Positions 41 to 12,184 of a DNA stretch of 12,986 nt are shown one piece after another. Source of the DNA: a virus; the UHGV virus genome UHGV-1359266. One strand, given 5' to 3'. The position numbers were made by a program, and so were the translations under genes. The notes below the pieces were generated by a model. That model was given only the letters and a program-made list of their open reading frames with translations. It was not told the DNA's origin and did no database searches. The number at the start of each line of letters is the position of its first letter. The first letter of the stretch is position 1.

Positions 41-83
41 ACAACTATCGGCAATACTGCTGATAATTAAAGAGGAAAATGAT

Positions 84-2600: not shown

Positions 2601-3461
2601 ATGAAACAATACCAAGATTTAATTAAAAATATCCTTGAAAATGGCTATGAAACCGATGACCGAACAGGCACAGGAACAATTGCTTTGTTCGGTACTAAAT
2701 TGCGTTGGGATTTAACCAAAGGTTTTCCTGCAGTAACAACAAAAAAGCTCGCCTGGAATGCTTGTATTTCTGAGTTATTGTGGTTCTTATCAGGAAGTAC
2801 TAACGTAAATGACCTGCGTCAGCGTACTCACGGGTCTTTAATTGCAGGGAAAACGATTTGGGATGAAAATTACGAAAAACAAGCAAAAGATTTAGGATAT
2901 CATAGCGGTGAGCTTGGCCCAATTTATGGAAAACAATGGCGTGATTTTGGCGGTGTAGACCAAATTGTAGAAGTTATTGATCGTATTAAAACATTTCCTA
3001 ATGATAGACGCCAAATTGTTTCCGCGTGGAATCCGGCAGAACTTAAGCAGATGGCATTACCACCTTGTCATATGTTCTATCAGTTTAATGTTCGTAACGG
3101 ATACCTTGACCTCCAATGGTATCAACGATCAGTAGATGTTTTCCTCGGTCTTCCATTTAACATCGCGAGCTATGCTGCTCTTTTACATATTGTTGCTGAC
3201 ATGTGTGAACTAGTTCCAGGCGATTTGATATTCTCTGGTGGTAATACACACATTTATTCTAACCATATTGAGCAATGCAAAGAGATATTAAATAGAACCC
3301 CTATGGACCTATGTAAACTCAGTATTAATTGGCCTAATGGATTTAGTCAATGCGATACTGAAACTCAAATGTATTGGTTAACTGAATATATGACAGCACG
3401 AGATTTCGTTCTAAAAGATTATCAGTCCCATGGTGTCTTGAAAGGAAAGATGGCGGTGTAA
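2601..3461 (+). CDS. td: thymidylate synthase (uninterrupted ORF, 286 aa)
   Basis: Catalytic motifs seen in sequence: DRRQIVSAWNP and LPPCHMFYQF (active-site Cys). SD AGGTG upstream. The length equals recalled T4 Td (286 aa), but the ORF is continuous, so no group I intron. Confidence 0.95.
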   Translation: MKQYQDLIKNILENGYETDDRTGTGTIALFGTKLRWDLTKGFPAVTTKKLAWNACISELLWFLSGSTNVNDLRQRTHGSLIAGKTIWDENYEKQAKDLGYHSGELGPIYGKQWRDFGGVDQIVEVIDRIKTFPNDRRQIVSAWNPAELKQMALPPCHMFYQFNVRNGYLDLQWYQRSVDVFLGLPFNIASYAALLHIVADMCELVPGDLIFSGGNTHIYSNHIEQCKEILNRTPMDLCKLSINWPNGFSQCDTETQMYWLTEYMTARDFVLKDYQSHGVLKGKMAV

Positions 3462-3484: not shown

Positions 3485-3748
3485 ATGATTTTACGATTTA
3501 AAGATACTTCTGGTGTAGTTCTTTTTACACTTCCTAACCCAAGCGAGTTAGAAGTTCCAGGACCAAATCAGCCTATTATAATTTATGGCAAAAAATATTA
3601 TACTCATAAAATGACTCGTGAGTATTTTGATAATAAAATTTCCACAGTTAAAACTTCTTCTGACTGTTATTATGATATTACTGTTTTAACGGAAAAACAA
3701 TATGAAGAATTATCACCGCGCGGGCCGTCTATGCCAGGTAGTGAATAA
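3485..3748 (+). CDS. hypothetical protein (87 aa)
   Basis: ORF with SD GAGG upstream. Its 3' end overlaps the next ORF by 47 nt in a GC-rich patch. Confidence 0.45.
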
Positions 3749-4028
3749 ATATAAATCCGACTTTGATGTTAATATTCACCGTGGTACATTTTGGGGAAAT
3801 TACGTCGGTAAAGATGCTGGCAGCCGGGAGGCTGCCATTGAATTATTCAAAAAAGATTTTATACGTCGAATTAAATCCGGAGAAATAACTAAAGCACATT
3901 TAGAGCCTTTACGTGGAATGAGGCTAGGATGCACATGTAAACCGAAGCCGTGTCATGGTGATATAATAGCTCATATAGTTAACCGATTGTTTAAAGACGA
4001 TTTTCAAGTTGAGGACTTATGCAATTAA
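3702..4028 (+). CDS. hypothetical Cys/His-containing protein (108 aa)
   Basis: ORF ending 10 nt inside nrdA (translational coupling). Contains [11 protein letters not shown], a possible metal-binding motif. The start is uncertain: ATG 3702 has a weak SD and GTG 3741 is an alternative. Confidence 0.5.
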
Positions 4029-6283
4029 TTAATGTTATCAAAAGTAGTGGTGTTTCTCAGAGCTTTGACCCGCAAAAAATTATTAAAGTTTTATCTTGGG
4101 CAGCTGAAGGAACATCAGTCGATCCTTATGAATTATATGAAAATATTAAATCTTATCTCCGTGATGGAATGACAACTGATGATATTCAGACTATTGTCAT
4201 TAAGGCTGCTGCGAATTCTATTTCAGTTGAAGAGCCTGATTATCAATATGTAGCTGCACGCTGTTTAATGTTTGCTCTTCGTAAGCATGTTTATGGACAG
4301 TATGAACCGTGTTCATTTATTGACCATATTTCTTATTGTGTAAATGAAGGGAAATATGACCCTGAATTATTGTCAAAATATTCTGCAGAAGAAATTACAT
4401 TTTTAGAATCAAAAATTAAGCATGAGCGGGATATGGAATTTACTTATTCCGGGGCAATGCAATTAAAAGAAAAATATCTAGTTAAAGATAAAAGCACTGG
4501 TCAAATTTATGAAACTCCGCAGTTTGCATTTATGACTATCGGAATGGCATTGCATCAAGATGAACCTGTTGATAGATTAAAACATGTTATTCGTTTTTAT
4601 GAAGCAGTATCTACTCGACAGATTTCACTGCCAACTCCTATTATGGCTGGTTGTCGTACTCCGACTCGACAGTTTAGTTCATGCGTTGTTATTGAGGCAG
4701 GTGATTCATTGAAGTCTATCAATAAGGCTTCTGCTTCAATTGTTGAATATATTTCTAAACGTGCTGGAATTGGTATTAACGTTGGTATGATTCGTGCAGA
4801 AGGTTCTAAGATTGGTATGGGCGAAGTACGACATACTGGTGTTATTCCTTTTTGGAAACATTTTCAGACTGCTGTTAAATCGTGTTCACAGGGTGGAATT
4901 CGTGGCGGCGCTGCTACTGCTTATTATCCTATTTGGCATTTGGAAGTTGAAAATCTTCTAGTTTTAAAAAATAACAAAGGCGTAGAAGAAAACCGTATCC
5001 GTCATATGGATTATGGTGTTCAGCTGAATGATTTGATGATGGAACGTTTTGGAAAGAACGATTACATTACTTTGTTCAGTCCACATGAAATGGGTGGCGA
5101 GCTTTATTATTCTTATTTTAAAGACCAAGACCGTTTCCGTGAATTATACGAAGCAGCAGAAAAAGACCCTAATATTCGTAAAAAGCGTATTAAAGCACGT
5201 GAACTATTTGAATTGCTCATGACTGAACGCTCAGGAACAGCAAGGATTTATGTACAGTTCATTGATAACACGAATAATTATACGCCGTTTATTCGTGAAA
5301 AGGCACCTATTCGCCAGAGTAACTTGTGCTGTGAAATTGCTATTCCAACAAATGATGTGAATAGTCCTGATGCTGAAATTGGATTATGCACTTTATCTGC
5401 ATTTGTATTGGATAACTTCGATTGGCAAGACCAAGATAAAATTAATGAATTGGCAGAAGTTCAAGTTCGTGCTCTTGATAATCTGTTGGATTACCAAGGA
5501 TATCCAGTTCCTGAAGCAGAAAAAGCTAAAAAGCGTCGTAATCTTGGCGTAGGTGTTACTAACTATGCAGCTTGGCTGGCAAGTAACTTTGCTTCTTATG
5601 AAGATGCTAACGATTTAACGCATGAACTATTTGAGAGATTACAGTATGGACTCATTAAAGCATCCATTAAGCTCGCCAAAGAAAAAGGACCTTGCGAATA
5701 TTATTCAGACACTCGTTGGTCTCGAGGCGAATTACCTATCGACTGGTACAATAAAAAGATTGACCAAATCGCAGCTCCAAAATACGTTTGTGACTGGTCG
5801 TCGCTGCGGGAAGACCTTAAGCTCTTTGGCATCCGTAATAGCACATTATCAGCACTTATGCCATGTGAGTCATCTTCCCAAGTTTCTAACAGTACAAACG
5901 GTATCGAACCTCCACGTGGACCAGTCTCTGTTAAAGAGTCAAAAGAGGGTTCCTTTAATCAAGTCGTGCCCAATATTGAACATAACATAGACCTCTATGA
6001 TTATACATGGAAATTAGCTAAGAAAGGTAATAAACCGTATCTTACGCAGGTAGCTATTATGCTGAAATGGGTGTGTCAATCAGCTTCAGCGAATACATAT
6101 TATGACCCCCAAATCTTCCCTAAAGGAAAGGTTCCAATGTCAATAATGATTGATGACCTTTTGTATTTTTGGTACTTTGGTGGAAAAAATTTCTATTATC
6201 ATAATACCCGTGATGGTTCTGGTACTGATGATTATGAAATAGAAACTCCAAAAGCTGAAGATTGTTCATCCTGTAAATTATGA
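4019..6283 (+). CDS. nrdA: aerobic ribonucleotide reductase large subunit (class Ia alpha), 754 aa
   Basis: Active-site SNLCCEIAIP and the C-terminal redox Cys pair (DCSSCKL) are seen in sequence. Length matches recalled T4 NrdA (754 aa). SD GAGGA upstream. Confidence 0.96.
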   Translation: MQLINVIKSSGVSQSFDPQKIIKVLSWAAEGTSVDPYELYENIKSYLRDGMTTDDIQTIVIKAAANSISVEEPDYQYVAARCLMFALRKHVYGQYEPCSFIDHISYCVNEGKYDPELLSKYSAEEITFLESKIKHERDMEFTYSGAMQLKEKYLVKDKSTGQIYETPQFAFMTIGMALHQDEPVDRLKHVIRFYEAVSTRQISLPTPIMAGCRTPTRQFSSCVVIEAGDSLKSINKASASIVEYISKRAGIGINVGMIRAEGSKIGMGEVRHTGVIPFWKHFQTAVKSCSQGGIRGGAATAYYPIWHLEVENLLVLKNNKGVEENRIRHMDYGVQLNDLMMERFGKNDYITLFSPHEMGGELYYSYFKDQDRFRELYEAAEKDPNIRKKRIKARELFELLMTERSGTARIYVQFIDNTNNYTPFIREKAPIRQSNLCCEIAIPTNDVNSPDAEIGLCTLSAFVLDNFDWQDQDKINELAEVQVRALDNLLDYQGYPVPEAEKAKKRRNLGVGVTNYAAWLASNFASYEDANDLTHELFERLQYGLIKASIKLAKEKGPCEYYSDTRWSRGELPIDWYNKKIDQIAAPKYVCDWSSLREDLKLFGIRNSTLSALMPCESSSQVSNSTNGIEPPRGPVSVKESKEGSFNQVVPNIEHNIDLYDYTWKLAKKGNKPYLTQVAIMLKWVCQSASANTYYDPQIFPKGKVPMSIMIDDLLYFWYFGGKNFYYHNTRDGSGTDDYEIETPKAEDCSSCKL

Positions 6284-6334
6284 TATAATTTGACTCACGG
6301 ACGAGTCACTATCTATTAACTAAGCGGAAAATTT

Positions 6335-7513
6335 ATGAGCACAGTTTTTAATACAAATCCAGTTGATGTTTTAAAAGAACCGATGTTTTTTGGTTCAGGT
6401 CTTGGTATTGCGCGTTATGATATTCAACGCCATAAAGTTTTTGAAGATTTGACCGAAAAGCAATTGTCATTTTTCTGGCGGCCTGAAGAAGTAAACTTAA
6501 TGATGGATGCTGCACAATTTAATAAACTTCCTCAGTATCAGCAAAATATTTTTACTAATAACCTGAAGTATCAATCGCTTTTGGATAGCATTCAGGGTCG
6601 TGCACCGTCTGCTGTACTTATGTCATTAATTTCAGACCCAAGCCTCGATACATGGGTTGCTACATGGACTTTTAGTGAAACTATTCACAGTCGTTCATAT
6701 ACTCATATCATGCGAAATCTTTATACTGATCCATCGAAGGTGTTTGATGAGATTGTATTAGATGAAGCTATTATGAAACGTGCTGAATCTATCGGTCGCT
6801 ATTATGATGATGTTCTGATTAAAACCCGTGAATGGGAAAATGCTAAAGAATTTGTAGAACTAGCTAAAGAATCTCCTGATGCCGACTTTCGTTTAAACCG
6901 AGCTATTAAACAAGAGGCCGAAGCTAAACGTGCTTTAATGAAGTCTCTTTACCTCTGTTTACACGTTATTAATGCCTTAGAAGCTATTCGTTTTTATGTA
7001 TCTTTTGCATGTACCTTTAACTTCCATAAGAACATGGAAATCATGGAAGGTAATGCCAAGATTATGAAGTTTATTGCACGTGATGAGCAGCTTCACCTTA
7101 AAGGCACTCAATATATTATTCGTCAACTTCAACTTGGCACTGATGGCGATGAATGGGTTAAAATTGCTCAAGAGTGTGAACAAGAAGCAGTTGATATTTT
7201 CATGGAAGTTAACCGCCAAGAAAAAGATTGGGCAGTTCATTTATTTAAAGATGGCGATGTTCCTGGATTAAATACAAATAGCATGTGGAGCTTTATTGAT
7301 TACTTAACTGTATCTCGTATGAAACAGTGTGGTCTTCCATGCCCAATTACCGATGCTCCGGTTAAACATCCATATCCTTGGATTCGTGAATACCTTAATT
7401 CTGATAATGTTCAATCCGCGCCGCAAGAAGTAGAACTGTCATCTTACCTTGTAGCACAGATTGATAATGATGTTGATGATAAAGTTATGATGAGTTTTAA
7501 AAAATACTTTTAA
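6335..7513 (+). CDS. nrdB: aerobic ribonucleotide reductase small subunit (class Ia beta), uninterrupted, 392 aa
   Basis: Tyrosyl-radical region FSETIHSRSYTHI and the R2-type C-terminal tail SYLVAQIDNDVDD are seen in sequence. Continuous ORF, so no intron. Confidence 0.95.
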   Translation: MSTVFNTNPVDVLKEPMFFGSGLGIARYDIQRHKVFEDLTEKQLSFFWRPEEVNLMMDAAQFNKLPQYQQNIFTNNLKYQSLLDSIQGRAPSAVLMSLISDPSLDTWVATWTFSETIHSRSYTHIMRNLYTDPSKVFDEIVLDEAIMKRAESIGRYYDDVLIKTREWENAKEFVELAKESPDADFRLNRAIKQEAEAKRALMKSLYLCLHVINALEAIRFYVSFACTFNFHKNMEIMEGNAKIMKFIARDEQLHLKGTQYIIRQLQLGTDGDEWVKIAQECEQEAVDIFMEVNRQEKDWAVHLFKDGDVPGLNTNSMWSFIDYLTVSRMKQCGLPCPITDAPVKHPYPWIREYLNSDNVQSAPQEVELSSYLVAQIDNDVDDKVMMSFKKYF

Positions 7514-7516
7514 GGA

Positions 7517-7540
7517 GTGGGCCGCAAGGCCCATTTTATT
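7517..7540 (+). terminator. intrinsic terminator-like hairpin: GTGGGCC / GCAA loop / GGCCCAT, followed by TTTTATT
   Basis: Seen in sequence. GC-rich stem (core GGGCC/GGCCC, extendable by T-A and G-U) with a GNRA tetraloop and a T-run, placed 4 nt after the nrdB stop and ending at the denA ATG. Confidence 0.6.
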
Positions 7541-9128
<1,588 letters not shown>

Positions 9129-12124: not shown

Positions 12125-12154
12125 GTTTACTTTACGGTAGAGTTGTGATATTAT
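12125..12154 (+). promoter_or_regulatory. T4 early-type promoter candidate: GTTTAC (12125-12130), 18-bp spacer, TG (12146-12147), TATTAT (12149-12154); inverted repeat GGTAGAG / CTCTACC (12136-12142 / 12157-12163) brackets the -10
   Basis: Seen in sequence, in an intergenic region directly upstream of SD GAGGA and the ATG at 12185. Confidence 0.6.
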
Positions 12155-12184
12155 AGCTCTACCAAAACAAATGAGGAAATTGAA

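Follow-up and report, generated by a model that had tools for sequence, protein, structure and literature searches.

The window, by which we mean the whole analysed stretch of 12,986 nucleotides (UHGV virus genome UHGV-1359266), is T4-type phage DNA. The 421 bases around the junction considered here match about 500 Tequatrovirus genomes with 95-99% identity; the T4 annotation at this position is nrdB followed by denA, and the sequence of the nrdB-denA junction is identical in T4. The upstream gene (6335..7513, + strand), taken from the list of open reading frames, is an intronless nrdB of 392 aa encoding the small subunit of ribonucleotide reductase, and the matching records give a class Ia ribonucleotide reductase beta subunit. 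The downstream gene (7541..7951, + strand), assigned from its translation, from PDB entry 2WSH and from the N-termini of homologues, is denA, encoding endonuclease II, an enzyme of the GIY-YIG family with 136 aa that degrades cytosine-containing DNA, its substrate (PMC2764454). The reading frames of td (286 aa) and nrdB (392 aa) are both uninterrupted, and nrdA is directly followed by nrdB (window 2601-3461 and 4019-7513); in contrast to T4, the window phage lacks the td intron, the nrdB intron and mobE/nrdB.1. All likely genes of the window lie on the + strand. The intergenic region between nrdB and denA comprises 27 nt, and a motif scan of the 3' part of nrdB returned no promoter motif of the late or MotA type, nor is there a promoter motif between the two genes. 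With so short an intergenic region and no T4-type promoter just upstream, denA is therefore expected to be read from transcripts that run through nrdB.

In RNA form, the junction consists of the final nrdB codons AAA AAA UAC UUU, the stop codon UAA, the motif GGAG, the two arms UGGGCC and GGCCCA of a hairpin closed by the loop GCAA, the spacer UUUUAUU and the first denA codons AUG AAA GAA. The nrdB stop codon (TAA, 7511-7513, + strand) supplies the first three bases of an extended Shine-Dalgarno (SD) element UAAGGAG (7511..7517, + strand), whose core GGAG occupies 7514-7517; the element is recognised from the sequence itself, from its duplex with the anti-SD and from the motif conserved in relatives. 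Its seven contiguous bases are complementary to the 3' end of the 16S rRNA. The hairpin (7518..7533, + strand; 5' arm 7518-7523, loop 7524-7527, 3' arm 7528-7533) has 6 bp and a GNRA tetraloop, and is identified by energy, pair probabilities, covariation and RNAalifold. It is followed by a U-rich spacer of 7 nt (7534..7540, + strand). The sequence-only reading had placed the GGAG 23 nt ahead of the ATG at 7541 with a 16-nt hairpin in between, and these positions are correct: 16 of the 23 nt are taken up by the hairpin and 7 are left as the effective spacer. The energy of the 16-nt hairpin is -11.6 kcal/mol, all six pairs have P 0.99-1.0 in a 120-nt context, and the 81-nt context around the hairpin folds with z = -2.84 relative to shuffles. 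Rfam returned no family at the gathering threshold in the window and chance-level matches only around the hairpin. The same palindrome would also fold on the minus strand, where it is followed by CUCCUUAAAAG; we reject a minus-strand element, as the likely genes are all on the + strand.

The strength and position of the SD set denA apart from the other genes of the window. For 22 likely gene starts the anti-SD duplex was scored over the preceding 35 nt, and UAAGGAG (-9.5 kcal/mol) is the strongest of all, located 20-23 nt from the denA ATG. In 21 of the 22 cases the best SD is found at a spacing of 2-11; denA is the sole exception, which bears out the earlier claim that a GGAG 23 nt away is too far for a normal SD. 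The same scores agree with the claim that it is the only SD of denA: the last 18 nt before the ATG hold no usable SD, their best duplex being -3.0 kcal/mol for a CAAGGC buried in the hairpin. Other intergenic hairpins that were checked in the window (46-65, 318-335, 743-773 and 12136-12163) are each followed by an ordinary SD.

Several of the remaining structures in the window have features of their own. Those at 743-773 and 12136-12163 have long, perfectly paired stems (12-14 bp, -15 to -17 kcal/mol) and overlap promoter-like sequences, TTTACA-N17-TACTAT/TATTAT extended by a TG; the hairpin at 46-65 comes after a third match of this kind, at 12-40. A further hairpin, UGGCAGCC-GGGA-GGCUGCCA (3818-3837, -15.9 kcal/mol), followed by UUGAAUUAUU, lies inside the open reading frame 3702-4028 at the position of nrdA.1 and may resemble the mobE terminator as a structure within a gene.

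The reference annotations begin denA at a different codon. In GenBank AF158101.6 and RefSeq NC_000866.4 the T4 gene starts at an in-frame GTG (T4 NC_000866.4 137951; window 7517..7519, + strand), 24 nt upstream of the conserved ATG, giving a protein of 144 aa; no stop codon separates the two. The denA of phage Bp7 is annotated from an equivalent upstream ATG, also 24 nt upstream (HQ829472.1 98831; L088 57). If denA truly started at GTG 7517, the hairpin would be coding sequence. Despite both T4 records, the open in-frame path and the Bp7 annotation, we consider this extremely improbable. The annotated upstream starts are found 0-2 nt from the SD and within the hairpin; GTG 7517 lies in the hairpin base and its first base is the last G of GGAG, so that its spacing is zero. 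An upstream in-frame start is present in only 4 of 24 junction types (see below), and the 8-codon N-terminal extension is not conserved. The N-termini of 16 DenA homologues align at the Met of ATG 7541, the original T4 entry X04140 gives a DenA of 136 aa with two candidate ribosome-binding sites marked, PDB 2WSH and the constructs of the Carlson laboratory begin with MKEIATEY, and the enzymology was likewise carried out on the 136-aa protein. Judged from these alignments, ATG 7541 is the conserved denA start, and the GTG of the T4 reference and the upstream ATG of Bp7 are probably mis-annotations; with ATG 7541 as the start of denA, the T4 reference entry is put right. The second SD candidate of X04140, an AAGG in the loop and 3' arm, was rejected: it is not conserved, because relatives carry UUCG loops.

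For a comparison across relatives, the DenA protein was searched against viral contigs, metagenomes and named phages. The search yielded 27 distinct hairpin-containing nrdB-denA junction types with DenA proteins that are 58-99% identical; they derive from Tequatrovirus, Mosigvirus, Dhakavirus, Gelderlandvirus, Jiaodavirus and Karamvirus as well as unclassified Tevenvirinae (at least six genera), and the metagenome scan contributed one new type only. Of the 27 types, 24 carry an SD-like motif (AAGG, AGGA or GGAG type) that mostly overlaps the stop codon and lies upstream of the GC core in a stable hairpin. By computation, the best SD duplex and the maximal helix are 0-2 nt apart in all 27, and no type has an SD between hairpin and ATG, where the best duplex is -0.1 kcal/mol or weaker. 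The linear distance from the second G of AGG to the ATG is 23-29 nt in the relatives. Subtracting the hairpin from the SD-to-ATG distance leaves 4-12 nt (median 7) across the 27 types; the prediction that a folded hairpin leaves the SD about 7 nt from the ATG is exact here. The spacer after the hairpin measures 4-10 nt in the 27 types, and the total intergenic length is near constant (26-28 nt in most types); shared ancestry, and not selection, may account for part of this conservation of spacing. In type L013 the stem is 2 bp longer and the intergenic region is correspondingly longer, with the flanks outside the hairpin unchanged, a single case to which we attach little weight.

The hairpin itself varies in sequence and is maintained in structure. 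Most types have a UUCG loop; GCAA or GUAA is found in the T4 group, and UUAG, UUUG and CUUGA occur once each. The stems include the variants GGGCC, GGGGC, GGGAC, GGGAGAC, CAGGGC, GAGGGC and GGGAG, with compensation on the opposite arm. In an alignment of 24 types, 94% of the cells are paired, and in three of the six pairs both partners are changed (17 cells in all). The covariation score of 0.35 compares with 0.14 in shuffles and was reached by none of 500 shuffles, and slid registers score much lower. According to RNAalifold, the hairpin is the only consensus structure of the region, with SD and AUG left unpaired. The structure of the junction is beyond chance, as seen from the compensatory stem changes, the RNAalifold consensus and the enrichment at real T4 gene starts described below.

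A few relatives deviate from the common layout. Types L032 and L033 and Serratia phage 4S keep the hairpin with little or no SD outside it; the hairpin is therefore of some value independent of a split SD. Type L028 (about 1490-1506, IMGVR_UViG_2974786931_000001) lacks both SD and hairpin, and its nrdB stop and denA ATG overlap (TTATGA), from which it follows that denA can be expressed by pure coupling. The 3' end of nrdB in L028 is T4-like and its denA resembles that of the L025 group, which suggests recombination. Coupling through a stop-start overlap of the ATGA or TAATG type was rejected for the window, where 27 nt separate stop and start; L028 is the only type with such an overlap. In Krischvirus KFS-EC (L048 540-600) denA is located behind a different gene, and an ordinary SD (GAGGAAAGGAUA) stands between a GGCGGGA-GAAA-UCCCGCC hairpin with UUUGUUGU and the ATG; hairpin and SD are thus separate elements there. 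Biquartavirus, Slopekvirus and Tulanevirus have a different denA context.

An SD that is brought close to its start codon by an intervening hairpin is known from T4, for which two natural sites of this kind are listed, genes 38 and 25 (PMC3014915). With the hairpin folded, a spacing of 22 nt becomes 5 nt at gene 38 and one of 27 nt becomes 11 nt at gene 25; destabilising mutations in the stem lower initiation at both, and compensatory ones restore it (PMC3014915). The gene 25 arrangement (Nivinskas 1999; Malys and Nivinskas 2009, both as cited in PMC3014915) is limited to close T-even phages (PMC3014915). In this review of T4 post-transcriptional control, denA and nrdB are not mentioned, and our literature search returned no description of the nrdB-denA hairpin; its coverage of the early literature is incomplete, and an older mention is possible.

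The likeness to genes 38 and 25 had already been drawn from the sequence, and for gene 38 it goes nearly base for base, with a layout that fits the published description (PMC3014915). The T4 gene 37-38 junction (TAAGGAGAGGGGCTTCGGCCCTTCTAAATATG) comprises a stop codon overlapping the SD, a tetraloop hairpin, a short spacer and the ATG, and reads UAAGGAG-A-GGGGC-UUCG-GCCC-UUCUAAAU-AUG. Both junctions have the same UAAGGAG overlapping the upstream stop and a hairpin that begins 0-1 nt after the SD. In both, a GC-rich tetraloop hairpin (-13.7 kcal/mol each in the same scan) is followed by a short A/U-rich spacer, the intergenic regions measure 26 and 27 nt, and the linear spacings of 22 and 23 nt are reduced to 5 and 7 nt for gene 38 and denA, respectively. 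The differences are few. The loop is UUCG at gene 38, whereas it is GCAA at the denA of T4 and the window (most denA relatives have UUCG as well); the denA spacer is more U-rich and more terminator-like; and denA is prereplicative while gene 38 is late. The gene 38 split site is proven by mutation, whereas that of denA is a candidate recognised by comparison.

Gene 25 is the more distant counterpart. It shares with denA a distant SD (GAGG) brought near by an intervening hairpin, from 27 to 11 nt, and a tight intercistronic junction, and both genes are recovered by the genome scan described below. Its hairpin, unlike that of denA, is rich in A/U, less stable (-6.4 to -7.4 kcal/mol) and sequesters two SD-like motifs of lower strength, and the stop codon of gene 26 overlaps the gene 25 AUG, which is not so at the denA of T4 and the window. 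In contrast to the restriction of the gene 25 arrangement to close T-even phages, that of denA extends over at least six Tevenvirinae genera.

The rarity of the architecture was assessed by scanning the whole T4 genome on both strands, without use of the annotation. A strict scan (an SD four-mer followed after 0-3 nt by a hairpin with a perfect stem and an energy of -5 kcal/mol or lower, then 3-11 nt and an ATG with 35 or more open codons) returned five matches among 1779 ATGs, namely gene 25, gene 38, denA and two weak intragenic sites. A relaxed, fold-based scan over 2301 T4 start codons returned 14 matches, five of them at annotated starts: genes 25, 38, denA, 5.3 (weak) and 30.6. The hairpins of denA and gene 38 both score -13.7 kcal/mol in the relaxed scan, the next best -8.9 kcal/mol. 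The enrichment at annotated starts is modest in number and consistent (one-sided Fisher p = 0.01-0.03). Convincing T4 starts with this architecture are only genes 25 and 38, both proven, and denA. Two of the other matches are described briefly. At gene 30.6 (T4 NC_000866.4 129445) an ordinary SD lies inside the 3' arm of the hairpin, with possible sequestration, and at gene 5.3 (T4 NC_000866.4 80621) a weak hairpin is found between GAGG and the ATG.

From sequence comparison and by analogy with gene 38, we consider with moderate confidence that denA has a hairpin-bridged (split) translation initiation region at its junction with nrdB. The anti-SD of the 30S subunit would pair with UAAGGAG (7511-7517) overlapping the nrdB stop, while the fast-folding GC-rich tetraloop hairpin (7518-7533) would stay folded and be looped out; this would shorten the distance between the SD and the denA ATG at 7541 from 23 nt to about 7 nt, a functional spacing. 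We infer that denA translation requires the hairpin. The site would probably be used by free 30S subunits as well as by ribosomes released at the nrdB stop; as the latter would land directly on the SD, reinitiation is likely to have some share. In T4 and the window, the hairpin together with UUUUAUU may also terminate some nrdB transcripts or protect their 3' ends, which would give less denA mRNA relative to nrdB. Such a terminator or 3'-protecting role may be secondary and may vary between lineages. The sequence-only reading had assigned both functions to the one element: its split-site part agrees with the distance, the sole SD, the covariation and the gene 38 match, whereas its terminator part is no more than plausible, the U-run being 0-1 nt in 13 of the 27 types.

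A competing explanation sees in the hairpin chiefly an intrinsic terminator of nrdB transcripts or a stabiliser of their 3' ends, with denA translated only by termination-reinitiation and with no positive contribution of the hairpin to initiation. In T4 and the window, the GC-rich stem and the UUUUAUU behind it have the look of a terminator, and U-rich tails (at least 5 U in 8) are found in most relatives. The directly following U-run is nevertheless 0-1 nt long in 13 of the 27 types, and tail scores range from 0.6 to 4.1, the window being intermediate and L032 and L033 having 2 U in 8; it is the geometry of SD, hairpin and spacer that is uniformly conserved, not the U-tract. Since the U-tract is not conserved, we do not carry the terminator reading across the relatives. 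A hairpin persists in the types with a weak external SD (L032, L033 and Serratia 4S) and upstream of the Krischvirus denA, L028 demonstrates that pure stop-start coupling is viable, and there is no promoter motif between nrdB and denA, all of which fit this explanation; the twin hairpin of gene 38, however, is an enhancer of initiation (PMC3014915). Within the nrd region a precedent exists in the internal hairpin of mobE, a proven weak terminator with 30-50% termination (PMC2790892). The two hairpins are alike in their GC-rich stem, 4-nt loop, short U-run and location in the same transcription unit; they differ in that the mobE stem has 9 bp and the denA stem 6 bp, the denA U-run is not conserved in relatives, and the denA hairpin begins 4 nt past a translated stop. 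A ribosome following closely and positioned at this stop should hinder the folding of a hairpin 4 nt downstream. The nrdB-denA hairpin is also absent from the output of a simple terminator scan, which we treat as uninformative, as we suspect that the maximal stem uses up the T-run. With respect to transcripts, the supplementary tables of PMC9697503 class nrdB RNA as 'early' and denA RNA as 'middle', which, at a distance of 27 nt, hints at RNA levels that are uncoupled across the hairpin and would suit a terminator; no RNA 3' ends mapped to the U-tract of the hairpin were found in the literature searched. Partial termination in the T4-like members is possible, and ahead of a nuclease gene it would hold down the expression of the nuclease. 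Taken as the main function of the hairpin, termination appears rather unlikely to us.

The hairpin could conversely act as a translational damper, separating the SD too widely from the ATG, sequestering the SD in part and blocking access; a nuclease capable of degrading host DNA would thereby be held at a low level. Low expression would be reasonable for an enzyme that degrades cytosine-containing DNA (PMC2764454). In free RNA, the helix can be extended into the GGAG, pairing weakly with the UUUU, by three G-U and one A-U pairs of decreasing probability (G7517-U7534 P 0.96, A7516-U7535 P 0.65, G7515-U7536 P 0.29, G7514-U7537 P 0.08). This extension is, however, not conserved: the maximal helices of the relatives mostly end at or before the SD, and the consensus fold leaves SD and AUG unpaired. 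A similar extension into the SD is also possible at the gene 38 site, where the same layout enhances initiation (PMC3014915). Thermodynamic folds in a longer context pair the SD and AUG with nrdB coding sequence, a point in favour of a damper that we discount because the nrdB region is translated. A damper would moreover have no need for so strong an SD exactly at the base of the hairpin in six genera, and we regard this explanation as improbable. A site for the RegB endoribonuclease was rejected as the main reading: GGAGUGGGCCG does not fit the strong-site consensus GGAGRAYARAA (PMC3014915). The RegB cleavage motif GGAG is also not conserved, with GGAU, GGAC, GGAA or GGU in many relatives.

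A more elaborate version combines the two functions and makes the element of SD, hairpin and AUG a translation-sensitive two-way switch. A ribosome finishing nrdB close behind the RNA polymerase would block the hairpin, and termination would be suppressed; after its departure, the refolded hairpin would provide the only geometry that allows denA initiation. If true, nrdB translation would set both the amount of denA mRNA and denA translation. The near-identical junctions of denA and genes 37-38 could further mean a portable intercistronic cassette and not convergence. We consider this combined proposal improbable. As an observation in its own right, the T4 gene 37-38 junction (L053 1121-1152) is identical to the denA junctions of L022, L035 and L042 in 27-28 of 32-33 bases. 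By sequence, this likeness could be convergence on an SD plus GGGC-UUCG-GCCC or a shared or moved cassette.

Should the split initiation region favoured here be correct, denA would be the third T4 example of a known mechanism, and no new mechanism is implied. It would explain how a nuclease gene is expressed that has neither a promoter of its own nor a nearby SD and lies behind the gene of an abundant enzyme. The denA site is conserved far more widely than the gene 25 arrangement, with many variants of stem, loop and spacer and one natural deletion, and these natural variants form a comparative series on how the 30S subunit accommodates a looped-out hairpin.
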